Made by a program: the position numbers and the translations under genes
The notes under the pieces: generated by a model
Seen by the model: only the letters and a program-made list of their open reading frames with translations
Told to the model about the DNA's origin: nothing
The model's database searches: none
NCBI GenBank assembly: GCA_040005235.1
Contig: JBDTZG010000059.1
Coordinates: forward strand, 1 to 31,322
DNA: 31,322 bases
Direction of reading: 5' to 3'
From: Acidobacteriota bacterium
Lineage (GTDB): Bacteria > Acidobacteriota > Thermoanaerobaculia > Multivoradales > UBA5704
Shown here: positions 7,833 to 31,321 of the stretch, piece after piece
How the letters are laid out: every line of letters starts with the position of its first letter
Position numbering within the stretch: position 1 is the first letter of the stretch

Positions 7833-7879
7833 CGGGAGCTCCAGGGTGCAGGAAGGGCGTTGGACATAAAGAGCCAGTC

Positions 7880-7909: not shown

Positions 7910-7925
7910 GGCGCCGGCAAAGCCT

Positions 7926-9139: not shown

Positions 9140-9526
9140 CTATGGGAACGGTGTCGGGGAAACGATCCGCAGAAACGTCTCCACGCCGACCACGGCCGGG
9201 TCGAGGGCGAACTCCCACAAATCGAGGCCGCCGAACAGCGCTTTGACGTTGCCCCAGCCCGCCGCCTGCATGTGGCGGGCGCCTTCGATCGCCGTCGCTC
9301 CGTCGTCGTCGAACAGGACCACCTCGCGATCGCGTGGCGGCTCCCACTCCGGTCCCGGGTAAGGGATTGCTCCCGCGAGCGAACGGACGCCCGGCTCCGC
9401 GCGGACATCGATCAAGAGCGGCGGGTCGCCGTCGGTGAGCCGACGGAACACGTGGTACGGCGAGATTTCGAGCGAGAGATCGAACTGGATCACCGGGGTC
9501 GAATCGTCGAGGAAGCGGGCGGGCAT
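9140..9526 (-). CDS. Rhodanese-like single-domain protein, catalytic Cys replaced by Asp
   Basis: LLIDVR, LAGAI, VVLFDDDG (normally VVxYCxxG), ARHMQAAGWGNVKALFGGLDLW. Start is ATG 9526 or TTG 9553. Confidence 0.8.
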   Translation of the reverse strand: MPARFLDDSTPVIQFDLSLEISPYHVFRRLTDGDPPLLIDVRAEPGVRSLAGAIPYPGPEWEPPRDREVVLFDDDGATAIEGARHMQAAGWGNVKALFGGLDLWEFALDPAVVGVETFLRIVSPTPFP

Positions 9527-9663
9527 TGGGGAGTGTCCTGATTCTTGATCCAACGACCAAATCGGCGAGAAGCGCCGTTGCCGTTAAGATATTGTCATGA
9601 ACGCCTTCCCGTTCTCTGCCTAGTCGGGCTGTGAGATCCGTGCGAGGCGAATGAGGAGGCGTC

Positions 9664-9915
9664 GTGCCTGTTCTTGAGATCCCCTACAGTGAAGACCTCT
9701 TGATCGCATCAGGCCAGGAACCTCGGGAGTTAGAGCTGGAGCTCCGCTTCTTGCTTGCGTCTAAGTTGTTCGAGCTCCGCCGCTTGTCTCTCGGTAAAGC
9801 AAGCGAGCTGGCGGGCCTTCCCCGTTTGCAGTTTATGGACGAGCTAGGCCGCCGATTGATTCCCGTCATCAACCTCGCAGACGATCAGATCGCCGACGAG
9901 CTTCGTGATGACTGA
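9664..9915 (+). CDS. UPF0175 family (COG2886-type) predicted HTH antitoxin
   Basis: 83 aa with LASKLFELRRLSLGKASELAGLPRLQFMDELGRRLIP; strong GAGGAGG RBS; overlaps the downstream PIN gene. Confidence 0.88.
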   Translation: MPVLEIPYSEDLLIASGQEPRELELELRFLLASKLFELRRLSLGKASELAGLPRLQFMDELGRRLIPVINLADDQIADELRDD

Positions 9916-10399
9916 GTGGGTCGTCGTTGCGGATTCGAGCCCATTGATCGGCCTCGCTCGGATCGGCCAGCTCGAGATTCTCCGCAAGCTGGCCTCGCGG
10001 ATCCTGATGCCGCCTGCGGTGCAAGCGGAGATCACCCAACATCGGCGAGAAGCGCCGGGAGCTGCGGCGATCCGGCAAGCAGCTTGGATTGAAATCGCTA
10101 CTCCTGATCCTCCCGAAGTGGAACTCCTTGCCATCCTGCTCGATCGCGGTGAAGCGGAAGCTATCGCCTTGGCTCAGAGGCTTCCAGGTTCAACGCTTCT
10201 CCTGGACGACGCCAGAGCGCGTCGGGTGGCCGAACGATTGGCCATTCCCCGCATAGGTACGGTCGGTCTCTTGAGGCGAGCCAAGAAAGCTGGCTTGATT
10301 CAGGCGGTCAAGCCTTGCATCGAGGCGCTCATGGCGAACGGGATTTACATTCATCGAACCCTGATCGATGCAGTTTTGAAAGACGTGGGGGAATCCTAG
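9908..10399 (+). CDS. DUF3368 PIN-domain protein (COG2405-type), predicted toxin
   Basis: VVVADSSPLI, LDRGEAEAIALA, LLLDDARARRVA and GTVGLLRRAKKAGLI motifs; paired with the upstream antitoxin. Confidence 0.9.
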   Translation: MTEWVVVADSSPLIGLARIGQLEILRKLASRILMPPAVQAEITQHRREAPGAAAIRQAAWIEIATPDPPEVELLAILLDRGEAEAIALAQRLPGSTLLLDDARARRVAERLAIPRIGTVGLLRRAKKAGLIQAVKPCIEALMANGIYIHRTLIDAVLKDVGES

Positions 10400-10490
10400 A
10401 CGACCTTCGCTCGGTGAGCGATCTTCGGCGTGTGATTCCCAGTTACGGCAGCCGCCGGGGGGCCGAAGGCTCCCCGGCTGACTTTATTTC

Positions 10491-11732
10491 TTACACCACC
10501 CGCGAGTCGTGATCCGCCCACACCAGGCCGGACATCACCTTGGGCAGGAAGCGCGTCGATTTCGGCGGCAGCATTTCGCCGTGTTCGATCGCCAGGGCGA
10601 AGGCGGCCGGGGTCATCGGGGGGAGCCAGATGCCGGTGCCCGCTTCGCCGTTTTCGATCATCCCGTAGAGGACTTCCGGATCGGAGCGGTAGATGGTGGT
10701 GCCGTCGATCGCCGCGGCTGGGGCTAGACCGAGGGCCGGGTAGACGATCTCGTGGAGGAGGACGACGGCGACGTTGCGCGCTCCTGGGGAGAGCGAGGCC
10801 GGGCCGCGCTCGGGGTCGAGGACCCAGATCTCCGCCGGGCGGCCTTTCACCTTGAGGCCGATCGCCGTGGCGCCGGCTGCGGCGACGGCCTCGGCGAGCG
10901 CTGTGCCGGTCGATACGTCGACGGTCTTCCGGTCGGCGCCCGAAACGCCGGAAGCCTGGGCGATCCCGTCGAGGTCGATCGCGGTTCCGAGCGCCCGGTG
11001 GATCGGATCGATCGTGAGTGCGGGCGACGACAGGCTGGTGATGATCGCGAGTTTCGCGGAGGCTGCCGTGCCGGAGGCGGCGCCGTGGGCGCGGGCGAAG
11101 TGTCCCGCCACTTTGTAGCGGTGGTGTCCGTCGGCGATCGCCGAGGGGCCCGCGGTCGCCTGTTGGTAGAGGGCGATGCGCGCCGGATCGTCCACCCGGA
11201 ACAGTAGGTGGTGGTGGCCGTCGGGATCGACGTGATCGACGAGCGGGGTCTTGCCTTCGATGTCCTCGGCCACCAGGGCGTCGAGCCGGCCGCCATCGTC
11301 GGAGAGGAGCAGGGCGGGCTCCAGATCGACGCGCGTCGCCTCGAGCAGCGCCGTTCGATCGGCGATCGCCTTTTCGAGCGTCTGCTCGTGCGGGCGGATG
11401 GTCGTGGCGTCGGCGATCTCGACCAGACCGGCGATTCCCAGGCGCCGGCCGCCGCCGGCCAACTCGATCACATAGGGGTAGATGGCGGGCTTTTCGTCGC
11501 GGACGATGTCGCCGTCGGCAATCCAGGCTTTGTGGAGGGCCGCCGCGCGGACGTACGGGTTCTCGCCTTCGGGGGCGACGGGGCAGGTAAGGTGGACGAA
11601 CTGAAACGGCGAGTCCGCTTGGTAGCGGTCGCGAAGCGCCGGGTTGATCTGGTCGTAGGGGAGAGCCGCGAGCGGGCCGGGAACTCCGGCCGGAGCGCCG
11701 TAGCGAAGCCCCGAGAAAGCAAATAGACGCAT
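10491..11732 (-). CDS. DUF1015 family protein
   Basis: LPYDQI, IRPHEQT, IADGHHRY and C-terminal MLPPKSTRFLPKVMSGLV; GGAGG RBS; TAGAAT -10-like hexamer at 11766-11771 on the minus strand. Confidence 0.92.
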   Translation of the reverse strand: MRLFAFSGLRYGAPAGVPGPLAALPYDQINPALRDRYQADSPFQFVHLTCPVAPEGENPYVRAAALHKAWIADGDIVRDEKPAIYPYVIELAGGGRRLGIAGLVEIADATTIRPHEQTLEKAIADRTALLEATRVDLEPALLLSDDGGRLDALVAEDIEGKTPLVDHVDPDGHHHLLFRVDDPARIALYQQATAGPSAIADGHHRYKVAGHFARAHGAASGTAASAKLAIITSLSSPALTIDPIHRALGTAIDLDGIAQASGVSGADRKTVDVSTGTALAEAVAAAGATAIGLKVKGRPAEIWVLDPERGPASLSPGARNVAVVLLHEIVYPALGLAPAAAIDGTTIYRSDPEVLYGMIENGEAGTGIWLPPMTPAAFALAIEHGEMLPPKSTRFLPKVMSGLVWADHDSRVV

Positions 11733-11798
11733 CTTTCCTCCGTTGGGTGTACCGCCGAGGCGGGGATTCTATCCCGAGCGCAGCGCCGCCATTCCTCA

Positions 11799-11834
11799 GG
11801 AATAAAATAGACGTCATGCTATATTGACATGTCT
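11799..11834. promoter_or_regulatory. AT-rich divergent promoter region with an imperfect inverted repeat
   Basis: AGACGTCA-TGCTATAT-TGACATGTCT in the DUF1015/M12 intergenic region, preceded by AATAAAAT. It includes a TGCTATATT extended -10-like string and a TTGACA. Confidence 0.4.
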
Positions 11835-12020
11835 CCACGAGCGCGAGGCGCGGCTGGAAAAAGCCGAGACCCCAAGGTGGCCTGATCCTCGCATCAATGT
11901 AGTCATGCGGTTATCGAGATGAGCGAGGTGTGAGCGGGCCCTAGAGACTTTCAGCGGGGATTCCCGGACATCCGGACCCCAAGGTGCAAGCGGACACACG
12001 ACTTCCGCCGGAGGACACGC

Positions 12021-14087
12021 ATGCCGATTTCTGTCACATCGTGGCGTCGCTTTTCGCCCACCGGGCGGCCTGCGTTTCCTGCCCTGCTCGCCGCCTGCGC
12101 TCTCGCGGCGGGTCTCCTGGCGCCGATCGGCACCCTTGCCCAAGCGGAGGAGACTCTCCTGCCGCTCACCGGCGCGCCGGAGACCGGGGAGAAGATCGAA
12201 TCCCGCTCGGGCGTTTCCGCCGAGCTGTTTTCGTTCGAGGAGGGGCTCGCTGCTTCGCTGATCGGGGAGCCGTTCGATCGGGAGGTGGAGATCAGCGCGT
12301 TCCCCATCGCCCCTGGAGAGCGGGCCGACGTCATCCTCGCCCGGCACGAGATCTACGCGCCCGACGCCAAGATCATCGCGATCGACCAGGGCCGGCCGAC
12401 GGAAGTGCCGCGCTCGCGCTGGATCTTCTACTGGGGCGGCTCGGCCGCCGATCCCGCGACTCGGATTTTTCTCTCGGTCGATCCCGAACTCGGAGAGATC
12501 CGCGGCTTCGCGTCCGGTCCGAAAGGAACCTGGGATTTCCAGCCCTACGCCGACGCTGGCAAAGGGCAGAGCCTGATCGCGCCGCCGGCGTTCTTCCAAA
12601 CGGGATCGAAGGCCGCCGAGCCGACGTGGGCCTGCGGCGAGGACGAGGGGCCGGGCTTCCTTTCGTTTCCGCCCCCGGCGGCGGCCGACGCGCCGGAGCC
12701 GAACGCGATCACTACGCTCCACTCGATGACCCTCGCGATCGACACCGACAACGAGCTCATGGCGAACAAAGCCTGTTCCGGCAATCCGGCGGTCTGTGAC
12801 AACACGACCGTCGCGAGCAACTATCTCGCGAGCCTGGTGGCGGCGATGAGCGCGATCTACGAGCGCGACCTGCTGGTCCGCCTGCTCCAAGGGAACACGA
12901 CCTTGCGGGTGTCCACCACGGCCGACCCCTACGTGCAGAACTCGAACGGCAACGCGTCGCCCTCCGAGCTGTCGGAGTTCTCGAACTATTGGGGCGCCAA
13001 CTTCGGCGGCGTCAATCGGGGCCTCGCGATGATGATCTCGGGCAAGCAGCCGCAGAGCAACGCCGCCTCCGGGATTGCCTGGATCAACGGCCTATGCAGC
13101 ACCAGCGTCGGCTACAGCTTCAGCAAGGTGTTCGGTCCGGCGTTCGCGGTCTCCAACGACGCCAAACTGGTCGGCCACGAGCTGGGGCACAATTTCGGGT
13201 CGCCGCATACGCACTGCTACTCCCCGCCGCTCGACAACTGCTTCAACGGCGAGGGCGGCTGCTTTTCGGGCGGTACCAGCTGCCCCGCTCCGACCACGAT
13301 CAACGGCGTCACCAACGTGCGCGGCACGATCATGAGCTATTGCCATCTGCTCGGCGGCTGTTCGGCCTCCTCGGTGTTTCATCCGGGCTCGGTGGCGCTG
13401 ATCGCGCCTCTGATCCAAGCCCGAGTCAACGTCTGCATCTTTCCCGGCACCGGGGGTGGGGGCGGTGCCGTCACTGGAGTTTTGCCGCGGTCGGGCTCGG
13501 TGGTGGGCGGCACGCCCGTCACGATCAGCGGATCCGGCTTCGCGGCCGGCGCCGCGGTGACCTTCGGCGGTTCGGCGGCCACGGCGGTCGTCGTGGTCAA
13601 TTCGACCACGATCACCGCTCTCGCCCCGGCGAAGGCGACCGGCAAGGTGAGCGTCACCGTGACCAATCCGGGCGGCGCGCCGATGACGCTCACCGACGGG
13701 TACTTCTACATGCCGGTCGACGCGGCGCGGAGCTTCTTTACCGTCTCGCCCTGCCGGGTGCTCGATACCCGGAATACCGGCGGCGCACTCGCCGGTACCT
13801 CGACGCGGGGGGTCCAGGTGACCGGCATCTGCAGCGTGCCGAGCACGGCCAAGGCGATCTCGGCGAACGTCTCGGTGGTCACCGCCGGGGGCTCCGGCTT
13901 CTTCGGCGCGTTCCCGGGTAACGGTTTCCCGGTGGGCACGACGATCATGAGCTTTGCGGCGGGTCAGACGCGGACCAACAACGCGATCATCCTGCTCGCG
14001 ACCGACGGCACGGGCACCGCGCTGTTCCAAAACGGCGCGACCCAGCCCGCGCACCTGGTACTGGATGTGAACGGATACTTCCAGTAG
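12021..14087 (+). CDS. Secreted M12 (reprolysin-like) zinc metalloprotease with IPT/TIG domain and C-terminal beta-rich domain
   Basis: Signal peptide; pro-domain with possible Cys switch (WACGED); HELGHNFGSPH zinc motif; Met-turn TIMSY; IPT/TIG (GGTPVTISGSGF...VTVTNPGG); terminal PCRVLDTR...HLVLDVNGYFQ module; GGAGG RBS. Confidence 0.92.
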   Translation: MPISVTSWRRFSPTGRPAFPALLAACALAAGLLAPIGTLAQAEETLLPLTGAPETGEKIESRSGVSAELFSFEEGLAASLIGEPFDREVEISAFPIAPGERADVILARHEIYAPDAKIIAIDQGRPTEVPRSRWIFYWGGSAADPATRIFLSVDPELGEIRGFASGPKGTWDFQPYADAGKGQSLIAPPAFFQTGSKAAEPTWACGEDEGPGFLSFPPPAAADAPEPNAITTLHSMTLAIDTDNELMANKACSGNPAVCDNTTVASNYLASLVAAMSAIYERDLLVRLLQGNTTLRVSTTADPYVQNSNGNASPSELSEFSNYWGANFGGVNRGLAMMISGKQPQSNAASGIAWINGLCSTSVGYSFSKVFGPAFAVSNDAKLVGHELGHNFGSPHTHCYSPPLDNCFNGEGGCFSGGTSCPAPTTINGVTNVRGTIMSYCHLLGGCSASSVFHPGSVALIAPLIQARVNVCIFPGTGGGGGAVTGVLPRSGSVVGGTPVTISGSGFAAGAAVTFGGSAATAVVVVNSTTITALAPAKATGKVSVTVTNPGGAPMTLTDGYFYMPVDAARSFFTVSPCRVLDTRNTGGALAGTSTRGVQVTGICSVPSTAKAISANVSVVTAGGSGFFGAFPGNGFPVGTTIMSFAAGQTRTNNAIILLATDGTGTALFQNGATQPAHLVLDVNGYFQ

Positions 14088-14095
14088 AACACGAC

Positions 14096-14122
14096 CGGGG
14101 CGGCCTATTGGCGGCCGCCCCG
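14096..14122. terminator. GC-rich hairpin between convergent genes
   Basis: CGGGGCGGCC-TATTGGC-GGCCGCCCCG perfect 10-bp stem between the stops at 14087 and 14128. Confidence 0.65.
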
Positions 14123-14127
14123 ATTCG

Positions 14128-15831
14128 TTATTTTCCCGCGACCGCCGCGAGCGCCTGTTTCCTCGTGCCCTCGAATTCGTCGCCGGGGGCCCAGGTGGGC
14201 ATTGCGTCCTGTTGGGCGATCCAAAGCGAGGCGAAGAAGCCGAGGCGCGCGTCTTCGATCATGCCGTCGTAGTTCCAGTCGGGCGAGATTTCATCGCTCG
14301 GCTGGTGGTACTGGACCTCTTCCCATTTCTCCTGCGTCTCTTTGCCCCAGCCTTCGGGCTTGCCGCGGAACTTGCGCCCGGCGTCCAGGTAGATCGCCGG
14401 GACCCCGATCTTCGCGAAGCTGAACTGGTCGGACCGGTAGAAGAAGCCGCGGTCGGGCGCCTGATCGGGCAGGACCTCGCGACCCTGCTCCGCGGCGAGG
14501 TCTTTGACGATGCCGTCGAGCGAGCTTTTGCCTAAGCCGATGTAGGTGAGGTCGGTCGTCCGTCCCCAAATGTTGCCGCCGTCGAAATTGACGTTCGCGG
14601 CGATCTTGCCCGCCGGGAAGGTCGGGTGCTCGGCGTAGTAGCGGGAGCCGAGCAGGCCCTGCTCTTCGGCCGCCACGAACGCGAACAGGATCGAGCGCCG
14701 CGGGCGCTCCGGCAGGGCGGCGAACGCCTTGGCGATCGCCAGGATCTGCGCGCAGCCGGAGGCGTTGTCGACCGCGCCGTTGTAGATCTTGTCTCCGGTC
14801 TTGTCCGGCTCGCCGATGCCTAGATGATCGTGATGGGCGGAGAGGATCACCACCTCGCTCGCGAGCTTCGGATCGCTGCCGGGGAGCAGGCCGAGCACGT
14901 TGGCGGTGGTGGCTTTCTCGATCTTGTTCTTGAGCGTGAGCGTGGTCTTGGCTTTGAGCGGGATCGGCCGGAAGTCGCGGCTCTGCGCGTCGGCGATCAG
15001 CTTCGCGAGATCGAACCCGGCGGCGGCGAACAGCCGCTTGGCGGCATCCTCGGTCGACCAGGCCGCAACCTGGAGGCGCGGTTCGGCGCCCGCCGGCAGC
15101 TCGAACTGCTCGCCCGTCCAGGAGGTCTGGACCACCTGCCAGGGATAGCCGGCCGAGTGGTTGGTATGGATGATGATCGCCCCGGCCGCCCCCTGTCGGG
15201 CGGCGCTCTCGTATTTGTAGTCCCAGCGGCCGTAATAGAGCCGGCGCTTGCCGGCGAATAGGTTGTCGTCGTCCTCCGGGTCGTTGTTGAGCATGACCAG
15301 GATTTTCCCCTTCAAGTCCATCCCCTTGAAGTCGTCCCAGCGATACTCGGGCGCCTGGATGCCGTAGCCCACGAAGACCAGCTCGGCGTCTTCGAGCTGG
15401 GCGCTCGCGGCCTGGACGCCCGAGGTCGCGATGTAGTCGTCGCTCCGCTTCCAGGCGACCGACTTGTCGCCCAGCGAGAAGGTCCAAGTCGCGGGCATCG
15501 CCGCGTCGTTGCCGACGATGTCGAAGCTCTGCTGCCAGCCGCCGTCCGGCCCGCCGGGGGTGAGGCCGAGCGCTTCGAGCTCGGTCGCGAGGTAGGCCCT
15601 GGCGAGTTGATCCCCGCGGCTCGCCGGGCCGCGCCCTTCGAGCGCGTCGGAGGCGAGGAAACGGATCGGAGCGGCGAGGCTGCCGGCGTGGATGGCCTGG
15701 GAGGCCTGCTCGGCGCCTTGGGGGAGGCTCAAGCCGGCGATGTCGGCAGCGCTGGCGGCGTTGGCGGCCACGGCGGAAAGCAAGAAGGCGAGGCTAGCGG
15801 TCGCGAGCCTTAGGCGGCGGAATCTCTGCAT
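14128..15831 (-). CDS. Secreted M28 family metallopeptidase with PA domain
   Basis: ATG 15831 lies 6 nt after GAGGAG. Signal peptide; LASDALEGRGP, PA domain (VFVGYGI...YYGRWDYKYE), SAHHDHLG, NGAVDNASG, AAEEQGLLGS, RSDQFSF, YHQPSDE. Confidence 0.94.
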   Translation of the reverse strand: MQRFRRLRLATASLAFLLSAVAANAASAADIAGLSLPQGAEQASQAIHAGSLAAPIRFLASDALEGRGPASRGDQLARAYLATELEALGLTPGGPDGGWQQSFDIVGNDAAMPATWTFSLGDKSVAWKRSDDYIATSGVQAASAQLEDAELVFVGYGIQAPEYRWDDFKGMDLKGKILVMLNNDPEDDDNLFAGKRRLYYGRWDYKYESAARQGAAGAIIIHTNHSAGYPWQVVQTSWTGEQFELPAGAEPRLQVAAWSTEDAAKRLFAAAGFDLAKLIADAQSRDFRPIPLKAKTTLTLKNKIEKATTANVLGLLPGSDPKLASEVVILSAHHDHLGIGEPDKTGDKIYNGAVDNASGCAQILAIAKAFAALPERPRRSILFAFVAAEEQGLLGSRYYAEHPTFPAGKIAANVNFDGGNIWGRTTDLTYIGLGKSSLDGIVKDLAAEQGREVLPDQAPDRGFFYRSDQFSFAKIGVPAIYLDAGRKFRGKPEGWGKETQEKWEEVQYHQPSDEISPDWNYDGMIEDARLGFFASLWIAQQDAMPTWAPGDEFEGTRKQALAAVAGK

Positions 15832-16003
15832 GGTCATCTCCTCGGCGAGGTGGGGGGCGGATCGGAAACTCGGAGGGGGTACGGAGGGCATTGCACGTCG
15901 GGCGGACTGTAGCAAATCGGGGTTCGATCGCAGTTAGGGGAGCCACCACCCGGCTGCGGGTTGCTCGCGCGCCCTGCTGCGAGCTAAGGTCTCGCTCGCT
16001 AGG

Positions 16004-17216: not shown

Positions 17217-18754
17217 CCTCGCGAAGGACGGGGATCGGGTCGGGCGGCCCGCAGACCGTGGCGAGCCTGGAAGGCTCCGCTGCCGGGGTGCTGCTCGGCT
17301 CCGGCATCACCATCGCGAGCGCGCTCGGCGTGCGGGTGGCGATGGTGCGCTTCCTCACGCCGGACGATCTCGGCGCCGTGCTGTTGGCGATCGCGGTCAC
17401 CTCGGTCGGCGGCATGGTGGCGACCTCTGGTCTGCGCTCGGCCTCCGCCCGGCGGATCGCGGACCGGCTGGCGCTCGGGGCGCGGCCGGAGGCCCAATCC
17501 GCCGCGCGCACGGCGATCGGGCTCAGCCTGGCGACCGGCCTGGTGGCCGCCCTGTTGATTCCCTTCCTGCCGCTCTTGGGCCTCGGACGGCTCGCGGATC
17601 TGCCGCTCGCGGTGCTCGCCGGGACCGCGCCGGCCGCCCTGGGATTGAGCGTCGGCGTCGCGATGTGGGGGATTTCCCAAGGTCATGGCGACACCCGAGG
17701 CAGAGCGCTGTTTCGCGACGCGGGGGGCAGCGCGCTGCGCCTCGCGGGAGTCGTGGCCGCCGGGCTTCTCTCCGGCGGGCCGGCCTGCTTCGCGCTCGGC
17801 TGGGGGATGGGCTCGCTGATCGGCGAGCTGGCCTTCGTCGGTTACGGCGCCCGCCGTGGCTGGCTCTCCCGCTCCGCTCCTGCCTCGGCACGGGTCGACC
17901 GCGGCCTCATCCGCTCACTGCCGCCGTTTATCGGCATGACCGTGATCAACCAGGCCGCCACCTGGCTCGACATCGTGCTGCTCGGCGCGCTCGCGCCGCT
18001 CGCCGCAGTGGGGATCTACGGCGCCGCGCAGGGCTTGAGCCGCGTCCTCGGCCAGGTGAGCGACAGCGCCTCCCATCGCTTTCTGCCGCTCGCCTCGGCC
18101 GCCGTCGCGGCGGGGGACGAAGTGACGCTCGCCTCCGGCTATCGGCGCTCCCGGCAGCTCGCCTTCGCCTATCTCTGGCCGGCTCTCGCTCCTTGTCTGC
18201 TCTGCCCGCAGGCGCTGGTCCGCGTCGCGTTCGGCGCTCACTACGAAGTGGCCGGCTCGGCGCTGCGATGGCTGGCCGCCGGCTGGCTCGCCCGCTCTCT
18301 CGCCGGCTATACCGAAGAAGCTCTGGTGGCGCGCGGGAGGGCGGCGCAGGTGTTCGCGATCACGCTCGGCAGCACGCTGCTGATCGCCGCCCTGTTCTTC
18401 ACCTGGGTGCCGGTCTGGGGAGCCCTCGGCGCCGCGATGGCCGTGGCGGCGGGCCAAGCGCTGCGCGGCGCGGTGGGGGTCGCCCTGTTCGACCCGCCGC
18501 TGCGCCGCGCCGCCCTGATGCCGGTCGATTTCCTCCGCTTTTTCGGCGCCGCGGCGCCCGCGCTCGCGGTGGCGCTCGGGTTTGCGGCTTGGCCGGGCGC
18601 CTCGCCTGCCTGGCTGGTGCTCGGCGGGGTGGTGCTCGCGGCGCTCGCCGCCGCTTCCAGGCTGGCGGCGAGAGCACTTCGCTCCTTCTTCGCCGGCGCT
18701 CGCCGCGAGCGAGCCGGGCGGCCCGAAGACCGCCCGGGAAGCAGTGCCGAGTAA
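17213..18754 (+). CDS. MOP-superfamily exporter (Wzx-like oligosaccharide flippase / MATE-like)
   Basis: About 12-14 hydrophobic segments; RFLTPDDLG and LDIVLLGAL...VGIYGAA, VPVWGALGAAMA motifs. Start is TTG 17213 (TTGA overlap with the Rid stop) or GTG 17258. Confidence 0.85.
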   Translation: MTSRRTGIGSGGPQTVASLEGSAAGVLLGSGITIASALGVRVAMVRFLTPDDLGAVLLAIAVTSVGGMVATSGLRSASARRIADRLALGARPEAQSAARTAIGLSLATGLVAALLIPFLPLLGLGRLADLPLAVLAGTAPAALGLSVGVAMWGISQGHGDTRGRALFRDAGGSALRLAGVVAAGLLSGGPACFALGWGMGSLIGELAFVGYGARRGWLSRSAPASARVDRGLIRSLPPFIGMTVINQAATWLDIVLLGALAPLAAVGIYGAAQGLSRVLGQVSDSASHRFLPLASAAVAAGDEVTLASGYRRSRQLAFAYLWPALAPCLLCPQALVRVAFGAHYEVAGSALRWLAAGWLARSLAGYTEEALVARGRAAQVFAITLGSTLLIAALFFTWVPVWGALGAAMAVAAGQALRGAVGVALFDPPLRRAALMPVDFLRFFGAAAPALAVALGFAAWPGASPAWLVLGGVVLAALAAASRLAARALRSFFAGARRERAGRPEDRPGSSAE

Positions 18755-18767
18755 ACCGGCGGCGAGG

Positions 18768-18962
18768 CTAGAACGTGCAGGCGGCCGGCACGCAAGCCGT
18801 GGGCGAAGCCGTGCACTGCGGCAGGCAGGACCCGAAGATCGAGCAGCGGACGCAAACCGATACCTGCTGCGTCGGGAAGGGGCCGGCGGCTCCGCCGTTT
18901 ACGCCTTCGATCACTTCGAGGTGGCGTAGGGTGTCGCGGTGTAACTTCAACTTCCGTTTCAT
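18768..18962 (-). CDS. Putative RiPP precursor peptide: KLKLHRDTLRHL leader, double-Gly site, Cys/Ser/Thr-rich core
   Basis: MKRKLKLHRDTLRHLEVIEGVNGG / AAGPFPTQQVSVCVRCSIFGSCLPQCTASPTACVPAACTF. The leader is 24 aa; the 40-aa core has 6 Cys and 8 Ser/Thr. GGAG RBS upstream; it fills a gap not covered by any other credible gene. Confidence 0.82.
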   Translation of the reverse strand: MKRKLKLHRDTLRHLEVIEGVNGGAAGPFPTQQVSVCVRCSIFGSCLPQCTASPTACVPAACTF

Positions 18963-19037
18963 GATCGTTTTCTCCGAGATGAGCGCCGGGGGAGCCCCGG
19001 TCTCTGGAAAGAGAGACGATCGCGAATCCGGAAGGTA

Positions 19038-21713
19038 TTAGACCGGATCTCGATGGCCCGCGACCAAGGCCCCCCTCAGCAACGCCGCCAGATTCGCCAC
19101 GTGGGGCGGGTTGAGCATTTGAATGTGGTCCCCGGGCACGTCGATGATTTCGAGCGCCCCGCCCAGGCGGCGCGCCCAGCCGTTGTCGCGGGGAACCAGC
19201 CGGCACCAGAGCCGGGCGGTGCCGGCACCCAAAGCCGCGCGCAGCAGCACGACACGGGTGCCCGGCAGGAAGGCGGGCGGACCGAAGCGGAAGCGGCTCC
19301 GTGCCGCCATCGAAACCCGGCGCACCTCGTGGATTTGATGTTCGACCAGGGTGTTTCCGATCCGGCGCCGGGCGGCGCGCTGGATCAGGTGGGCGAGCGC
19401 TCGCACGGCGGTCGGCAGCCGACGGCCGCTGCTCCGCCAGATCCGCTGCGCGGCGAGCGCCAGCAGCTCGACGTCACGGACCGCGCGCGCGGCGATCGAC
19501 ACCGCGTCCGGCGTGTGCGAATCGCACATCGCGAGCAGCGCCACCGGCTCGCCGCGGGCGGCCAGGCTCCGCGCCATCTCGTAGGCGACCAGGCCGCCGT
19601 ACGAATGTCCCAGTAGAAAGTAAGGACCGCGCGGCTGCACGGCGCGCATCCGCCCGATCAGCGCCTCGGCGAGATCTTCGACGGTCGCAAGCGGTGCCCG
19701 GCTGCCGTCGAGTCCGGGAAACTGGAGAACCCGCAACGGCAGGACTTCGCGCAGCTCGGCCGCCAGCGGCCGATAGACGAAAGCATAGCCATCGACCGCC
19801 GGGATGCAGAACAGCAGCGGCCGCTCGGCCGTGCCCTGGTGGCCCAACGACAGAACGGGCAGAAGGGCATCGCGTCGCACTCCCTCGCGCAGATGTTCCG
19901 CGAGGGCGCTCACGGTCTGGGCCGAAAACAAAAGGGAAAGCGGCAGCGCCGTCCCGAAGCGCCGCTCGATCGCGGTAAACAGGGAAACCGCCGCGCGCGA
20001 GTTGCCGCCGAGGTCGAAGAAGCTCTCGTCGATCCCCACCGTTTCTTGGCCGAGCACCTCGCACCAGAGTGCCGCAAGACGCGTCTCCACCGGATCGCGC
20101 GGGTAGGCGAAGGTCCGCTCGGCGATCAGCTCGCGGCCGGCAAGCGTCGCGAGCGAGCGTCGGTCGAGCTTGCCGTTGGCGGTCATCGGCAGCCGTTCGA
20201 CCACCCGAAAGCGCGTCGGCACCATCGGCTGGGGCAACCGTTCGGCGAGCGCGCGCCGCAGATCGGCGCGGGAGAGCGGGAGGCCTCCCGCGGTGACCAG
20301 GTAGGCGATCAACTGCGGTTCTGCGCTCTCGCCGGAGGCGTTTTGCGCGGCGTCGTCGATCACCGCGACCGCGGCGTCGGCCACCCCCGGCAGATCGGCG
20401 AGCGCCCGCTCGACCTCCGCGAGGTCGATGCGCAGGCCGCGGATCTTGATTCGGGCGCCCACGCGGCCCAAATGCTCGAACGTGCCGTCTGCGGCGCGGC
20501 GCGCGAGGTCGCCGGTGCGGAAGCTCGGTCGGCCTCCGGCCGCTCCCTCGGTGCTCTTCGGATCGCGCCAATAGCCTTGGGCCACCTCCGTGCCGGAGAC
20601 CTCGACCTCCCCCACCTCGCCGGGCGCCACGGGAGCCCCCGCGGCGTCGAGCAGCTGGATCTCCACGCCTGCCGCCGGCCGGCCGAGCGGCACGAGGGAA
20701 GGTAGCGGCTCGTCGTGGCCGTACGAGCAGATCGTCACCGTGCCGGTCTCGGTCGTGCCGAGCCCGAAGACCAGCCGCGCGCCGGGCCGGAAGACGCGCC
20801 GGAACTGCTCGATCTCGCGCCGGCCGACCGCCTCTCCGCCGAGCCGGACGCGGCGGATCGAATCGAACGCCTGTCCCGTCGGCAGCGTCGCGGCAAGCTG
20901 GCGGAATAGCGTCACCCCCGAGCTATAGACCGTGATCCGCCGTTCGGCGAGCCAGGCGCCGAGGGAGTCGATTCCCTCGGTGGTGACGAGGTAGGGGAGC
21001 AGCTCCGCGCCGGAGAGGAGCGCGCTCGCCAAATCGCGCAACGCCGGGTTGACGCTCGGTGGATAGAGGAGGGTGCAGCGGTCGGTCGGCTCGATTCCGA
21101 GCGCCTCGCGATTGAGCGCGGCGTTGCGCAGCACCGCGCCGTGGGTCTGGACCACCCCCTTCGGCCGGCCGGTCGAGCCCGAGGTGTAGGTGAGCGCGGC
21201 GATCGTCGCGCGATCGACCGAAGCCGGAGGCAGCAGCGGCCCGTCGCTCGCCGCTTCGAGCCACCCCGCGGGATCGAGGTCGAGGCGGATCGGCGGCGCC
21301 GGATGGCCTTGCCCCCATTCGCGGCCCGGCGCCGCGATCGCCACGTGCGCCTCCGAGTCCTCGACGATCCGGGCGTTGCGCTCCGCGGGAGCGACCGGAT
21401 CGAGCGCGACGAAGAAACGCCCGGCGCGCCAAGCCCCGAGCATCGCGGCGGTGAGCCGCAAGCCCGGCTCGGCGATCAGCAGCACCGGCCGATCGGCCGG
21501 TGCCCCGGCCTCGATCAAGCGCCGCGCGACCCCCGCCGCCAGCCGGTCCAGCTCGGCGTACGTGGCGCTGCCGTCGGCGGCACACACCGCAGGCCGGTCC
21601 GGCCACCGCGCCGCCGCCGCGGAGAACGCCACGGCCAACCCTCCGGCTTCTTCGTCTCTCGGGTCCTTGGAGTCGTTGCCGTCTTTTGGATCCAACGCCC
21701 GCGCGATGCTCAT
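19038..21713 (-). CDS. Stand-alone NRPS-like enzyme, adenylation-PCP-thioesterase (A-T-TE), no condensation domain
   Basis: A domain: TYAELD, YTSGSTGRPKG, GLGTTETG, GEVEVSG...GYW, FRTGDL, GRVGARIKIRGLRIDLAEVE, NGKLDR. PCP: FFDLGGNS. TE: GHSYGG and PGDH. Confidence 0.93.
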   Translation of the reverse strand: MSIARALDPKDGNDSKDPRDEEAGGLAVAFSAAAARWPDRPAVCAADGSATYAELDRLAAGVARRLIEAGAPADRPVLLIAEPGLRLTAAMLGAWRAGRFFVALDPVAPAERNARIVEDSEAHVAIAAPGREWGQGHPAPPIRLDLDPAGWLEAASDGPLLPPASVDRATIAALTYTSGSTGRPKGVVQTHGAVLRNAALNREALGIEPTDRCTLLYPPSVNPALRDLASALLSGAELLPYLVTTEGIDSLGAWLAERRITVYSSGVTLFRQLAATLPTGQAFDSIRRVRLGGEAVGRREIEQFRRVFRPGARLVFGLGTTETGTVTICSYGHDEPLPSLVPLGRPAAGVEIQLLDAAGAPVAPGEVGEVEVSGTEVAQGYWRDPKSTEGAAGGRPSFRTGDLARRAADGTFEHLGRVGARIKIRGLRIDLAEVERALADLPGVADAAVAVIDDAAQNASGESAEPQLIAYLVTAGGLPLSRADLRRALAERLPQPMVPTRFRVVERLPMTANGKLDRRSLATLAGRELIAERTFAYPRDPVETRLAALWCEVLGQETVGIDESFFDLGGNSRAAVSLFTAIERRFGTALPLSLLFSAQTVSALAEHLREGVRRDALLPVLSLGHQGTAERPLLFCIPAVDGYAFVYRPLAAELREVLPLRVLQFPGLDGSRAPLATVEDLAEALIGRMRAVQPRGPYFLLGHSYGGLVAYEMARSLAARGEPVALLAMCDSHTPDAVSIAARAVRDVELLALAAQRIWRSSGRRLPTAVRALAHLIQRAARRRIGNTLVEHQIHEVRRVSMAARSRFRFGPPAFLPGTRVVLLRAALGAGTARLWCRLVPRDNGWARRLGGALEIIDVPGDHIQMLNPPHVANLAALLRGALVAGHRDPV

Positions 21714-21717
21714 CGGT

Positions 21718-22743
21718 TCACCCGGTCGTCCCGGTGCGCGCGGCCCCGTCGCCCCTCACCCGTCGCCAGATCTCCCGCGCCGGCAGCCGGACCGCCGCCC
21801 GAGCGATGCTGCCCGCCCCGAACCGCCGCCCGCCACCGTTCGCCGCCGCGAAGCGCGGATCGTCGCCCAAGTGCAGGGCGTGTAGCGCGTTCTTGTACAG
21901 AATCCGATCGAGCACCGCCGGCCGCCACCCTTGAAGCAAGAAGCGATCGACCGTCCGAGGCAGGCTGCCGCAGAGCGGAAACGCGCTGCCGAACAGGAAT
22001 TGGTCCGCGATCTGGCCCCGGTTGACCGCGTAGACCCATTCCCGGCCGCTAGGGGTGAACAGGTACAGGTCGGGGGAGGGGAAGACGTTGGCCCGCCGCA
22101 CCGTAACCGCAATCATTTCGCGCACGAAAGGGTACGCGCCGTGGCCGCAGATCAGATGCAGGCCGGGGAAGTCGTGCGCTACCCGATCGATCCATCGAGG
22201 GTGCGCATGATCGGGGCTCTCGCCGCCCCAGATCCCGGAGGTCTGAAGGAACAGGGCTACTCCCAGTTCCTGCGCCTTCTCGTAGAACGGATAGAGGCGC
22301 CGGTCGGCCACATGCTCGGAAAGCATCGGCGCGCGCCCCGGCTCGATCGCGATCCGCTTCAATCCGAGGGCGGTCACCACCCGCTCCAGCTCCGCCAGCG
22401 GATCGTGGCGCGCGCCGGAGACGTCGATCCCCGCGGCGCCCAGGAAACGGCCGGGGTACCGCGCTTCGAGGGCGGCCAGATCGTCGTTGTTCGTCCGCCG
22501 TGGCGGCAGCTCCCGCGCCCCGAGCTTCAGCCCGTCGTTGTTGCCCGAGACCGACACCGCCGTTCGAACCCCCGCCCGGTCCAGCTCGGCGAAGAATCCC
22601 TCGGGCGACAGGCCGGTCCAAGAGGCGAAGCGGTGACCGTCCGGACGCCCGGCAAGATAGGCGCCGTCGGAGGCGGAGGGCAGGCGGCAGCGGACGTCGA
22701 GGATCACGCGAGGGTTTGTCTCCGGAAGAGGGTAGGGGCTCAT
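21718..22743 (-). CDS. Amidohydrolase_2-like TIM-barrel protein with atypical active-site residues
   Basis: ATG 22743. ELDRAGV, NDDLAAL...YPGRFLG, LYPFYEKAQELGVAL, VAHDFPGLHLICGHGAYP, FLFGSAFP, ILYKNA. It ends 4 nt before the NRPS-like start. Confidence 0.88.
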   Translation of the reverse strand: MSPYPLPETNPRVILDVRCRLPSASDGAYLAGRPDGHRFASWTGLSPEGFFAELDRAGVRTAVSVSGNNDGLKLGARELPPRRTNNDDLAALEARYPGRFLGAAGIDVSGARHDPLAELERVVTALGLKRIAIEPGRAPMLSEHVADRRLYPFYEKAQELGVALFLQTSGIWGGESPDHAHPRWIDRVAHDFPGLHLICGHGAYPFVREMIAVTVRRANVFPSPDLYLFTPSGREWVYAVNRGQIADQFLFGSAFPLCGSLPRTVDRFLLQGWRPAVLDRILYKNALHALHLGDDPRFAAANGGGRRFGAGSIARAAVRLPAREIWRRVRGDGAARTGTTG

Positions 22744-22880
22744 TTCGTCCCGCAGCGACTGGCTGCTGCCGAAGGTGCCCGAAGGAGCGAGGAGACCAAA
22801 TGAACCCCTACCCGAAACAGAGGGCGAGCAAGACGCTGATTGTATCGCGGCCGTGTGGCGCCGAAGCCTTCGAGACCCTG

Positions 22881-22932
22881 TGCTAGCATCCCGCCTCGCC
22901 GCATTCGTCACAGATTCGTCACCCCACGTCAT
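22881..22932 (+). promoter_or_regulatory. Extended -10-like element followed by a Pho-box-like 11-bp-period direct repeat
   Basis: TGCTAGCAT at 22881-22889; ATTCGTCAC at 22903 and 22914 (11-bp period); a third CGTCAT at 22927; directly upstream of DUF47-PiT. Confidence 0.55.
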
Positions 22933-26775: not shown

Positions 26776-28469
26776 TGAGCCCTACCGCGCCCGCCGCCGA
26801 CTTAGCCGCCGCTTCGCTTCATCTCCCTCGCACCGTCCGTGCCCCTCGGGGGACGGAGATCTCCTGTTTGGGTTGGCAGCAGGAGGCGGCGCTGCGGATG
26901 CTGATGAACAATCTGGATCCGGAGGTGGCGGAGCGGCCGGAGGAGCTGGTGGTCTATGGCGGGTCGGGCAAGGCCGCTCGGAACTGGGAGTGTTTCGATG
27001 CGATCGTGGCGACGCTGCGGCGGTTGAAGAACGACGAGACCCTCCTTGTGCAGTCGGGCAAGCCGGTCGCGGTGTTTCGGTCGCACGAGGAGGCGCCGCG
27101 GGTTTTGATTGCGAACTCGAACCTGGTGCCGCATTGGGCGACCGCGGATGAGTTCCGGCGGCTCGAAGGGTTGGGGCTCACGATGTACGGCCAGATGACT
27201 GCCGGCTCGTGGATCTACATCGGCACCCAAGGGATCTTGCAGGGGACGTTCGAGACGCTCGCCGAGGCGGCGCGGCAGCATTTCGGCGGTAGTTTGGCCG
27301 GGCGGTTGACGGTGACGGCCGGGCTCGGCGGGATGGGCGGTGCGCAGCCTCTTGCGGTGACGATGAACGAGGGGACCTGCCTGGTGGCCGAGGTCGATCG
27401 GACGCGGATCGAGCGCCGGTTGGAGACCCGCTATCTGGATGAGGTGGCGCCCGATCTCGAAAGCGGCATTCGCCGCGCTCTCGAAGCGCGAGACCGGCGG
27501 GAGGCGGTATCCATTGCGGTCGAGGCGAATGCGGTCGATCTGCTGGAACGGCTGCTGGCCTTGGGCATCGTCCCCGACGCTCTCACCGACCAGACCTCGG
27601 CGCACGACGCTCTGCTCGGCTACGTACCGCAGGGAATGACGTTCGCCGAAGCGGTCGAGCGGCGTAGAGCCGAGCCTGAGTCGTACGTCGCCCGTTCGCT
27701 CGCCACCATGGTGGCCCACGTGCGGGCGATGCTCGCGCTGCAGGAGCGGGGGGCCATCACGTTCGACTACGGCAACAACCTGCGCGGCCAGGCGCTCGCC
27801 GCGGGGGAGACGCGGGCCTTCGAGATCGGCGGGTTCGTGCCGATGTTCATTCGGCCGCTGTTCTGCGAAGGGAAAGGCCCGTTTCGTTGGGCGGTGCTGT
27901 CGGGGGATCCGGAAGACCTGGCGGTGACCGACGAGGCGATTCTCGCGACCTTCCCGGAGGATGCGGCGCTCGCGCGGTGGATCACGCTCGCGCGGGAGCG
28001 GGTGGCGTTCCAGGGGCTGCCGGCGCGGATCTGCTGGCTGGGCTACGGCGAGCGGGCGAAGGCGGGTAAGGTGTTCAACGAGCTGGTGGCGTCGGGCAAG
28101 GTCAAGGCGCCGATCGTCATCGGCCGCGATCATCTCGACTGCGGCTCGGTCGCATCGCCCAACCGGGAGACCGAAGGGATGATCGACGGCTCCGACGCGA
28201 TCGCCGACTGGCCGATCCTGAACGCGCTGATCAACGCGGTGAACGGCGCCACCTGGATCTCGCTCCACCATGGGGGCGGCGTCGGCATCGGTTATTCGCA
28301 GCACGCGGGGATGGTGATCGTCGCCGACGGCACAGAGGCCGCCGCGCGGCGGATCGAGCGCGTGCTCACCAGCGATCCCGGCATGGGGGTCGTCCGCCAC
28401 GCCGACGCGGGATATCCGGACGCGATCCGGGTCGCCCGCGAGCGCGGCGTCGACCTGCCGATGCTGTGA
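26775..28469 (+). CDS. hutU: Urocanate hydratase
   Basis: [82 protein letters not shown]. Confidence 0.98.
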
Positions 28470-31321
28470 AGCGTTCACCGGCTCGCGCGCTCCGTTTTCT
28501 CCTTCTCGTCGGGGGCCTCGCGGCCCCTCTCCTTCCTCCGTACCTCGCCGCTCTGGTGCTCGGTGGCCTGGCCCTCGGCGGCTTGCTCGGCCTGCGGCCG
28601 CCGGGGCGCGAGCGGTGGATCGCTCTGGCGGCCTCCGCGGTCGCGGTGGCGGCGCTCGCCCGGCAGGGTTGGGTCGATGGCCAGGTGGAGCCGTCTGCCG
28701 AGCAGCTCCGCGCCAAGGCCTCCCGGGCATTTTCCGCCCTCTGGACCGATCTCGATCGGGAAGCCACGGCGGCGACGCTCTCTCTCGCTTCGGCAGAGAC
28801 CGATCTCCAGCGCTTCGAAGCCCTGGGCGCCTTGACGCGCCGCGAGGCGGGCTGGCGCGGCGAGCTGGAGCGCGCCTGGGGCGGTTGGGACAAGGGGCGC
28901 CGCTCGATCCTATTGCTCGATCCGGACGGCCAGGCGGTCGCCTGGGCGGGGGAGGGGTTGCTCCACGAGCTGGCGCCGCAGGCGTATCCGATCCAGGGGC
29001 GGCTCGCCGCGGCGAGCTTCGGCGCTGCGACGCTGCTCGCGATCCGGCCGATCGGGAGCGAGGCCAGGCCCCGCTGGCGGATCGTCGTCGGCGCGAGCTA
29101 TCCGACCAACCAGCTGCCGTTCCACTATGCCTGGCGGCGCCACCGGTGGGCGGTTATCGGTTCCGAGACGAGCCTCTCCACTTCGCAAGGAGACCGGCTG
29201 GACATGCCGCCGGGAACTCCCGAGCTGGCGGTCCGAAAGAGGGATCCGAAGGCGGTCCGGACGCCGCGCCTCGGTTTCTCTGCCGGCGCGCGGGTCGCCT
29301 GGGGGGCGCTCGGCCTGTCGATTCTGGCGCTCGCCGTGCTCCGCAGCTCGGGCCGCGCCCTGCCGAGCGCCACCTCCGCGATCGAAATCGCCCGCAGACC
29401 GGTGATTCCGCTCGCCCTCGGAGGCGCGCTCGCCCTGGCCGCCGCGGCGGGGGCCGGCGGTGCCGCTCTCTCCATCCTCGCCGGCGGGTTGGGAATCGCC
29501 GCGCTGGGGCTTTCTTCGGGTTCGCCGGGGTTGGCGGCGAGGCCGTTCGGACACATCGGCGGCCGCATCGGCCTGCGCGGCGCGATGGGGACCTCGGCCC
29601 GGCGGTTGGCGGGGCCGCTCGCCGGAGCGGCGAGCCTGCTGGTGCTGGTGGTCGTCGCCCTGCTCGCGCAGCGGTTCTCCGGACCCATGGACCTCGGCGG
29701 CAGCCTGCTCGGCAGCGCCAATGCGACCGCTTGGCGGGTCGGTTTCGCGCTCGCGACGCTCGGCCTGTTGTTCGCGGCCGGCCGGTTCGCCGCGGAAGCG
29801 CCCGAGCAGGAGCGTTGGGGCTGGATCGCGTTTGGTCTGGCACTTGCGAGCGGCGCGGCGGCCGATTTCGGCGCGCTGGCGATTCCCGGACTTGCCGCGG
29901 CGGGCGCTGCGGCTGCCCGTTGGGCCGGTCCCCGGGGGGCGCGCGAGCGCCCGAGCCCGGACGCGCCTCCCGGCGAAGGGCGTCATCAGGCGGCGGCGCT
30001 CGCCGGCTTGGTCGCCCTCTCGTGCCTGCTCGCGGGAGGGGTGGTCGAGGTCTCCTATCGCGCCTGCCTGCGAGGTGTCGTCGCGACCCGCCTGCCGGCG
30101 CGGCTCGCTCCGCCTCGGCCCGACGAGATCGTAGCGCTCCGCAAGCAGATCGAGAGCGGTTTTACCTCCGACCTCGATCGGTTGGCGCTTTCCGGCCCTT
30201 CGAGGCTCGAAGGGGAAGACCTGGCGTACGCGCTTTGGTGGCGCTCGCCGCTCGCCCGCCGCGGCGCGCTTTCGGCCCTCTCGGTGCAGCCGCTCGACCG
30301 CTCGGCGGGATCGGTCTTCTCTTTCGGCTTGCCGCTGTCTCCGGACCGACATCTCGATCGGACGAGCGAACGCTGGCGCGCGCTCGATCTGCCGCCCTGG
30401 CGGCAGGGTTTGATCGAAGGAGAGGTGCCGCTCTCGTGGGCCGGCAAACCTTGGGCGGTCGCGCGTTTCTGGTTCTTGCCGCGGCCGGGATTCCATCTCG
30501 CCGACGCGCGGCCGTTGGAGGAGATCGATACCGGTCTGCTGCGCGGCGGTCCGGCGGCGGTGGCGGTGGCGGAGCTCCCGGCTCAGGTGCAGTTTGCGCT
30601 CTACGACGGAGAAGGTCGGGCTCTCGCGCCCTGGGATGCGTCGCCGCCGCTGCCGGCCGCGCTGCGGCGCGCCCCGGCGACGATCGAGCCGCGGGTGCAG
30701 ATGCCGGGCGGGATCGCGCTCGCCGCGGTCCGCCGGGTGGGGACCGGCTGGTCGGTGCTCTACCTGCCGCGGCTCGATGCGCCGGCCGCCCTCGAACGGG
30801 TGGGCAACGCGGCGGTCGGCGTCGTTCTGCTGTTTGCCGGGGCCGCCCTGCTCGCTCTCGTGGTCGTGCTGCCCCGCGCGGCGGTGCGCGAGCTGCTCGC
30901 CCGTACGGTGCGTTCCTATTCGCGTCGTCTGCTGCTGGTCTATGGCGTCCTGCTGCTGCTGCCGCTCGCGCTGCTCAACGCCGTGCTGGTCCGCGGCGTC
31001 GAGCGTCGGCTCGCCGAGCAGCAACGGGTGGCGGGCGAGGCGGCGCTCGCCTCGGCGCAGAGCCTGCTGGCGGAGGTGCTCGGCTCGCTCGCGACCGGCT
31101 TTTCGGTCGAGACGACGCTCGACGACGCGCAGCTCAGCCGGATCGCCGGCCTGGTCCATCACGAGGTCAACCTCTATTGGGTGGCCAAGGTCTACGCGTC
31201 GAGCAAGCACGAGCTGTTCACCGCGGGCCTCCTGCCGGAACGGATTCCGGGCGACATCTATGCTCCCTTGGCGCTCGGCGGCGAATGGGTTTCGTCGCGC
31301 ATCAACCGCGCCTCGGGCGGC
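28466..31321 (+). CDS. Large multi-pass membrane protein, probably the N-terminal part of an NtrY-like sensor histidine kinase (runs off the right edge)
   Basis: GTG 28466 overlaps the hutU stop. I translated both ends in the same frame and saw no stop. Many hydrophobic segments; [14 protein letters not shown]; [22 protein letters not shown]; HHEVNLYW...[20 protein letters not shown]. The kinase domain itself is not within the window. Confidence 0.68.

Follow-up and report, generated by a model that had tools for sequence, protein, structure and literature searches.

How does a gene of only 64 codons, which has the look of a peptide precursor but no maturation enzyme beside it, give rise to a finished product? 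We address this question for an open reading frame (ORF) in contig JBDTZG010000059.1 (assembly GCA_040005235.1) of an Acidobacteriota bacterium; the whole stretch analysed, 31,322 nucleotides long, is called the window in the following. We propose that the ORF is probably the gene of a class I lanthipeptide precursor (LanA), made up of a 24-residue leader and a 40-residue core, which would be matured in trans; it is one of 37 dispersed paralogues in its genome. What favours this reading is the leader of the LxLxKx5L type with its Gly-Gly end, the paralogues that match the curated leader model NF038153, the LanB, LanC and peptidase-containing ATP-binding cassette (ABC) transporter (PCAT) in the same genome, and the LanA-LanC-LanB operons of relatives. 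The precursor and its immediate surroundings are laid out as follows:

18768..18962, minus strand: probable lanA-type precursor gene, 64 codons plus a TAG stop, ATG start (ORF listing)
18891..18962, minus strand: putative leader peptide, residues 1-24, MKRKLKLHRDTLRHLEVIEGVNGG (sequence; family alignment)
18771..18890, minus strand: putative core peptide, residues 25-64, 40 amino acids (sequence; orthologue alignments)
18972..18975, minus strand: Shine-Dalgarno-like GGAG, 9 nt before the precursor ATG (sequence)
18976..19037, minus strand: intergenic spacer between the stop codon of an adenylation-thiolation-thioesterase (A-T-TE) gene and the precursor; a stem-loop that includes the Shine-Dalgarno motif is possible (RNA fold)

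The leader opens with the basic stretch KRKLKLHRDTLRHL and closes with VNGG at residues 21-24, and Gly24 would be the cleavage point, judging from the aligned GG/GA column of the leader family. The core contains six Cys, four Ser and four Thr, with the Cys spaced as C-x2-C-x5-C-x3-C-x6-C-x4-C, and its C-terminus is the CTASPTACVPAACTF block, which is kept in orthologues. It has no Gly-Cys, and it ends in CTF, so the last residue is not Cys. The calculated mass of the core is 4017.84 Da unmodified, 4011.79 Da with three disulfides and about 3873.75-3909.77 Da after eight to six dehydrations. An earlier note on this DNA had described the 64-residue ORF, its basic leader, VNGG end and a core of 40 residues that includes six Cys and eight Ser/Thr, all of which agrees with the sequence; its remark that gene callers easily miss such an ORF does not hold here, as protein databases already list this protein and an orthologue 78% identical to it, both labelled 'hypothetical protein'.

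Is the ORF a gene at all? It looks like a real one, beyond a chance ORF, on the evidence of its GC content at third codon positions (GC3 of 0.82), the upstream GGAG, a leave-one-out match to a hidden Markov model (HMM) of related leaders, orthologues in seven of seven same-genus genomes and a ratio of non-synonymous to synonymous substitution rates (dN/dS) below 1. The GC content of its three codon positions is 0.57, 0.54 and 0.82 in a window of about 68% GC; GC3 is 0.81-0.88 in the neighbouring real genes and 0.69-0.76 in the overlapping frames. Compared with its nearest relative (G003), the precursor shows five synonymous changes and one non-synonymous change, and compared with a second genome (G002), dN is 0.184 and dS 0.52. 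In the latter comparison the leader is more constrained (0.117/0.616, a dN/dS of about 0.19) than the core (0.23/0.473, about 0.49). Purifying selection is visible in these alignments. The three closest sequences retain all six Cys, and among 12 copies in the genus conservation within the core is highest in the C-terminal block CT(L/A)SPTACVP(A/R)AC, the N-terminal part being variable. G002 carries three tandem copies of the precursor subfamily. As a separate observation, the conserved core block (window positions 18771-18815, minus strand) may be a ring pair or a pharmacophore.

The spacer upstream of the precursor folds at -31.6 kcal/mol (z -2.0) with the Shine-Dalgarno region paired, and 6 of 200 shuffled sequences fold equally well. 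The stem-loop, marginal by its z value, may serve in processing or attenuation or may have arisen by chance. A scan of positions 18400-19400 gave no consensus promoter or terminator. A match of the precursor to the NCBIfam Cas4g/Cas1g model is spurious, with 17.2 bits against a cut-off of 560.

To which family does the precursor belong? A word-based homologue search returned three proteins only, namely the precursor's own cluster and two orthologues, and the wider family was therefore found through leader profiles: a six-frame regular-expression scan of the genome (6.22 Mb in 140 contigs, with the precursor on contig C39), followed by an HMM built from its matches. In this way, 37 small ORFs were found to share the leader MKK..KL.L.RET[LVI]..L, followed by about 12 residues and G[GA], and cores of 19-48 residues. 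Two more HMM matches, a 496-residue frame and a hydrophobic frame, were rejected as false, and two truncated or weak candidates (contigs C24 and C101) were left out of the 37. The leader match on C24 (59259-59351, plus strand) is broken by a TAG right after the leader and may be a truncated or pseudogenised paralogue. When the precursor is omitted, the HMM of the other 36 leaders finds it at E 5e-7, rank 35 of 96,679 six-frame segments, and when its closest paralogue is left out as well, it is still found at E 2e-6. The median pairwise identity among the 37 paralogues is 38% for leaders and 23% for cores. A Shine-Dalgarno-like motif lies at -20 to -4 before 32 of the 37, compared with 17% of random ATGs; besides the Shine-Dalgarno, the DNA upstream of the 37 yielded no common motif.

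The leader itself points to a known type. Its motif L5-K-L7-H-R9-DTLRH-L15, together with the Gly-Gly end, fits LxLx(K/R)x5L, and in the family alignment T11 is invariant, with L5, L7 and E/D10 at 90% or more. A passage of Walker 2020 describes the LxLxKx5L motif in class I LanAs of Bacteroidetes, many of which end in GG and have a C39 protease in their cluster. The NCBIfam model of this class I lanthipeptide leader, NF038153 (lant_leader_L1a, cut-off 22 bits), matches 15 of the 30 family members scanned; two paralogues of the same genome reach its cut-off (26.9 and 22.9 bits), and the operon LanA of one relative scores 39.4 bits. It is the leave-one-out genome HMM that ties the precursor to these matching paralogues. 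The nearest named clusters in the ESM Atlas are class I lanthipeptide leader clusters (scores 0.84-0.85), which gives a lead only. TIGR04149, the leader model of radical-SAM Cys-rich ribosomally synthesised peptides, reaches 3 of the 30 members below its cut-off (best E 0.025) and leaves the precursor unmatched.

Which enzymes could act on such a family? The genome-wide search for leader paralogues and maturases that the earlier note had suggested gave, besides the 37 paralogues, one LanB, three LanC, one PCAT and three SPASM matches. The LanB, on contig C66, is full length: a single frame of 1129 residues matches both PF04738 (E 8e-171) and PF14028 (E 9e-66). The three LanC proteins stand alone on contigs C8, C35 and C115, in frames of 467-502 residues, and each has the WCYG and CHG motifs, which we take to be zinc ligands. 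The PCAT, also on C66, comprises C39, ABC membrane and ATPase domains and can be aligned end to end with the ComA and PCAT1 structures; it has the motifs QQTAASDCG (the Q-x5-DCG Cys motif) and HFV, and an HlyD-like protein adjoins it. This membrane-fusion protein of the HlyD type (locus L029, 6064-8226, minus strand, C66) carries a GAF domain, which is unusual in a type I secretion adaptor. None of the three SPASM matches (C4, C56 and C82:1433) lies within 8 kb of any paralogue. No LanD, the flavoprotein decarboxylase (HFCD type) of AviCys-type lanthipeptides, was identified among the two PF02441 matches in the genome: a 204-residue flavoprotein (L084, 3806-4420, minus strand, C107) located 1.3 kb upstream of a paralogue is a UbiX-family prenyltransferase (TIGR00421, 127.5 bits, cut-off 108.9), and the other match, in a 410-residue frame on C17, is presumably CoaBC, taken as such from its size alone.

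The position of other family members connects the leader with these enzymes. The LanC gene of C35 has two paralogues immediately before it and a MacB/FtsX permease gene after it, with a third paralogue 3.7 kb further on; the LanC gene of C115 is immediately preceded by one paralogue. Altogether, 4 of the 37 paralogues are within 5 kb of the three LanC genes, against a chance expectation of about 0.2 (30 kb in 6.2 Mb). The C35 locus (L026, G000:C35:34000-52000; G000 is the precursor's own genome) has a GC content of about 0.58-0.65, against about 0.68 in the window, and may be a horizontally acquired island.

In relatives the linkage extends to LanB. In five of them (G016, G024, G025, G027 and G030), LanC and LanB are both found no more than 5 kb from a leader of the same type. 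G024, G027 and G030 have LanA-LanC-LanB on one strand; G025 has LanB, two LanA and two LanC on one strand, and in G016 about 2 kb separate the LanA from a LanC of divergent orientation, past which comes LanB. Over about 1100 residues, the LanBs of these relatives share 45-55% identity with that of the precursor's genome, and the LanCs show 34-48%. Four relatives have a single leader copy, and in three of these (G016, G024 and G030) it is the one beside LanB/LanC.

The leader and LanB also occur together across genomes. In a set of 41 genomes (the precursor's own and 40 relatives; leader at E <= 0.001), the leader is present in 24, with 1 to 53 matches each and 16-53 in the precursor's genus. 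All 24 have a PF04738 match, which is a single match at E <= 1e-140 in 21 and in pieces in the other three (G011, G018 and G022). Among the 17 genomes without the leader, one (G029) has PF04738 at E <= 1e-140, six have weaker matches and ten have none. In each of three genera (g6, g7 and g8), one genome has the leader and LanB and the other is without both; the LanB of the g6 positive, G022, is in pieces. When the phylum was sampled evenly (201 genomes), at least eight had the leader at E <= 1e-5, one of them G189 (unpublished), and large leader counts, which are lower bounds, are seen only in G000 and G025. In G018, three leader matches (C13:447707, C15:8325 and C16:9131) are identical in score and frame length, which suggests a recently repeated element carrying a precursor gene.

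We infer every step of the following maturation route. First, the LxLxRx5L leader would dock on the single LanB encoded on C66. Second, LanB would glutamylate some of the eight core Ser/Thr and eliminate them to dehydro-residues. Third, one of the three stand-alone LanC proteins would add the six Cys to dehydro-residues, giving up to six thioether rings. Finally, the single PCAT on C66 and its HlyD-like partner would cut after Gly24 and export the 40-residue product.

The docking step was modelled as a complex of LanB residues 1-760 (alignment of 86 rows) with LanA (30 rows). The predicted complex scores 0.55 (runs 0.57, 0.52 and 0.55), and the best of three controls scores 0.00; at least 25% of contacts agree between runs, and the predicted local distance difference test score (pLDDT) of the partner is at least 36. 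Of 80 solved complexes 58 pass the mark used, and of 110 mismatched pairs 2 do so; those that pass it with scores of 0.60 or less are only seven of the 80 solved complexes but both of the mismatches.

Several observations weigh against maturation by these enzymes. The predicted complex supports docking only weakly and may be a memory of NisB-NisA; as this is a solved complex of like kind, the prediction shows likeness at most. The LanB, LanC, C39 and SPASM matches are all on contigs other than the precursor's, and LanB adjoins none of the 37 paralogues. When the neighbours within 8 kb of all 37 were clustered, no family occurred near more than four. NF038153 does not match the precursor even at E <= 10, and its 78%-identical orthologue likewise. 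Pfam gives no match either, in a copy that apparently lacks PF28317, the family named by the ESM Atlas. No LanM domain (PF13575) was detected in the genome, a weak negative as the control genomes are equally silent. The Arg at -12 and the short leader could impair recognition by PCAT, and the even number of Cys means that three disulfides are still chemically possible for this peptide. No RNA run was found to contain the locus. Relatives are not independent samples, so the co-occurrence of leader and LanB is a consistent pattern and not a test, and its statistical weight is overstated.

The alternative that survives these data best, and which we consider unlikely, is an unmodified or disulfide-only double-glycine peptide (a class II-type bacteriocin or a signal) that is exported by PCAT and untouched by LanB and LanC. 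The genome has one active-looking PCAT, and the leader has G-2, G-1, V-4 and I-7 as in double-glycine substrates, with Arg at -12 in place of a hydrophobic residue. The family as a whole (n = 37) follows the same rules, with Gly/Ala at -1 in 28, Gly at -2 in 30, Val/Ala/Ile at -4 in 34, Leu/Ile/Val/Met at -7 in 27 and Leu/Ile at -12 in 30. According to a passage of Bobeica 2019, these positions sit in the C39 groove of LahT150, and a review of that work, in the part concerned with it, places the positions required by LahT150 within a stretch of 13 residues. The even Cys count, the lack of LanB and LanC on the precursor's contig and the failure of the curated class I leader model to match point the same way. 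However, the Cys count is odd in 21 of the 37 cores, thus an all-disulfide design does not fit the family. Ser plus Thr equals or exceeds Cys in all 37 cores, whose composition includes 17.7% Cys, 15.0% Thr and 9.5% Ser. The last Cys is among the final four residues in 33 of them, and positions -1 and -5 relative to Cys hold Ser/Thr more often (0.40 and 0.43) than others do (about 0.24). The leader adjoins LanC in this genome, relatives have it no further than 5 kb from LanC and LanB, and its presence follows that of LanB across the 41 genomes. Moreover, the strongest constraint falls on the LxLxRx5L block, which lies upstream of the 13-residue stretch with the positions required by LahT150.

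The triple-disulfide alternative of the earlier note is therefore weakened at the level of the family and stands as a chemical option for the six-Cys member itself; its metal-binding option found no specific support. In contrast, its first proposal, that a distant synthetase acts in trans on a precursor of lanthipeptide type, is supported by the leader type, the paralogues, the enzymes in the genome and the operons of relatives, and its view that no maturase is local agrees with Pfam scans of the other large ORFs of the window, which detect no lanthipeptide, radical-SAM or C39 gene. The earlier note had named a lack of paralogues and of Cys conservation as grounds for giving up the idea; 37 paralogues were found, and the Cys are conserved.

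Still less probable is a decaying or orphaned paralogue, translated now or recently, in which a deletion of two residues in the leader has ended processing by the shared machinery. Indeed, the stretch of the leader from the RDT motif to GG has two residues fewer than its counterpart in 35 of the other 36 paralogues, and as a result Arg takes the place of the family's hydrophobic residue at -12. The precursor is also of the weakest-scoring kind of member, at rank 35 in the leave-one-out search and with no match to NF038153. However, the short spacing is found in all ten same-genus subfamily copies with the MKRKLxLHRDT start, which makes it an old, maintained state. Purifying selection, the conservation of the six Cys and the C-terminal block, and the triplication in G002 likewise count against decay.

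Could the genes beside the precursor take part? The neighbours that come into question are the following:

19038..21713, minus strand: stand-alone A-T-TE protein resembling a nonribosomal peptide synthetase, 891 amino acids (Pfam AMP-binding, PP-binding, Thioesterase), 75 bp upstream of the precursor; neighbour only
21718..22932, minus strand: Amidohydro_2 family protein, 404 amino acids (PF04909), syntenic in the genus; neighbour only
17300..18754 (start approximate), plus strand: MOP/Wzx-like 'polysaccharide biosynthesis' membrane protein (PF01943/PF13440; NCBIfam MOP flippase, E 1.6e-5); neighbour only

The MOP gene is convergent with the precursor, and their stops are 13 bp apart. In the genus, the gene order is M28-DUF2071-RidA-[LanA]-MOP-[LanA]-A-T-TE-Amidohydro_2-PHO4, in which one to three LanA copies flank MOP; in every same-genus genome examined, copies of the subfamily sit to one side of MOP or to both. 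The trio of MOP, A-T-TE and Amidohydro_2 (17300-22932) is specific to the genus. Orthologues of A-T-TE are present in six of seven same-genus genomes besides the window's own, and the other 33 genomes give one weak match; as they are confined to the genus, adjacency is indistinguishable from shared ancestry. The three proteins are treated here as neighbours and not as maturases. A hybrid product, in which A-T-TE and Amidohydro_2 would tailor the peptide (e.g. by acylation or aminoacylation) and the MOP protein would export it or give immunity, is highly improbable: the shared strand, the 75-bp gap to A-T-TE and the order kept in the genus, with LanA always hugging MOP, speak for it, but that synteny may be mere common descent, G007 has its LanA on the far side of MOP and none between MOP and A-T-TE, the closest LanA of G001 is on another contig than A-T-TE, AMP-binding enzymes are near only 3 of the 37 paralogues (within 8 kb), which was judged to be chance, and Pfam makes no condensation or acyl-transfer domain able to act on the peptide evident.

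The other ORFs of the window encode M20, M13, M12B and M28 peptidases, EamA, RidA, DUF2071, PHO4, GNATs, urocanase and a Clp ATPase. Positions 1490-15915 are unusually dense in peptidase genes: a 1086-residue protein with an M20 domain, an M13, a reprolysin-like M12B with TIG, and an M28. Two long ORFs, one of 952 residues and open-ended (28466-31321, plus strand) and one of 480 residues (10396-11838, minus strand), have no Pfam match at E <= 0.001; given the high GC, the choice of frame for both is uncertain.

How does the proposed class I precursor compare with known systems? Its closest likeness is to the class I LanAs with LxLxKx5L...GG leaders (the Bacteroidetes type, pinensin family, NF038153). 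These have the same basic N-terminus, LxLx(K/R)x5L motif and Gly-Gly end, the same core rich in Cys, Ser and Thr, and a C39 protease/exporter, LanB and LanC in the genome. Unlike them, the precursor falls below the HMM, has a leader two residues shorter, is not clustered with a maturase and comes from Acidobacteriota (its orthologue's source is labelled Thermoanaerobaculia); its family numbers 16-53 leader matches per genome in the genus, whereas G016, G024 and G030 have a single one, close to their LanB and LanC. Leader type and enzymes are already known, and the precursor adds a new, divergent member to a known type of precursor.

Double-glycine class II bacteriocins and competence pheromones (ComC/ComA and the substrates of PCAT1 and LahT) share the GG end, the hydrophobic residues at -4 and -7 (and -12) and a similar exporter. 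However, these cargoes are unmodified, are without an N-terminal block of the LanB type and have no link to LanB or LanC. Nisin (NisA/NisB/NisC/NisT/NisP) is made by a class I system, as proposed here, with a LanB that has both domains and a LanC; its LanB is a tRNA-dependent dehydratase, its LanC a zinc cyclase, and the mechanism is guided by the leader. Nisin differs in its FNLD-type leader, subtilisin-type leader protease, tight operon and one precursor, as opposed to the LxLxRx5L...GG leader, PCAT and dispersed genes found here.

From the same bacterial class, a coral-associated Thermoanaerobaculia metagenome-assembled genome has ThaA/ThaM/ThaO, whose Cys-rich lanthipeptide precursor was experimentally dehydrated and cyclised, as described in a part of the report (Nature 2026, PMC13083261). 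That system, according to the same part, uses a class II LanM and a GMC oxidase that makes thiazoles at Gly-Cys, within one cluster; in contrast, the precursor studied here has a core free of Gly-Cys, and LanM was not detected in its genome. As far as its relevant passages go, PMC13083261 deals with clustered class II and III systems. In the literature searched as full text, no dispersed class I library or such an expansion in Acidobacteriota was found described.

The nearest parallel in architecture is that of the prochlorosins and cyanotins (ProcA/ProcM and SyncA/SyncM) of marine picocyanobacteria, which likewise have scattered precursors, a conserved leader, hypervariable cores, a GG site and very few enzymes. 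Walker 2020 mentions, in one passage, many prochlorosin precursors far from their LanM (ProcM), and SyncM is reported to modify up to 79 SyncA. These systems are class II, with a single bifunctional LanM and leaders of the Nif11/NHLP kind, whereas here a class I LanB and separate LanC go with another leader type. We propose, in a judgement that is about evenly balanced, that this acidobacterial lineage has a class I counterpart of the prochlorosin system, in which one LanB, two to four LanC and one PCAT would be generalists for 16-53 scattered, hypervariable precursors per genome. If so, the subfamily of the window, with its conserved CTxSPTACVPxAC block, would be one stably inherited member. 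One-enzyme libraries are known for class II (ProcM, SyncM), and the dispersed class I architecture of 16-53 copies appears to be new.

In the precursor's genome, a single LanB, a few LanC and one exporter apparently serve 37 dispersed precursors, and some relatives keep the ancestral operon with one precursor. If this is true, tRNA-dependent class I enzymes evolved substrate-tolerant 'library' biosynthesis independently in soil bacteria. If confirmed, cluster-based mining of the few genes around LanC would overlook the majority of precursors in genomes of this kind, an uncultured soil and root bacterium would yield dozens of new polycyclic scaffolds, and naturally substrate-tolerant LanB/LanC enzymes would be available for peptide engineering.

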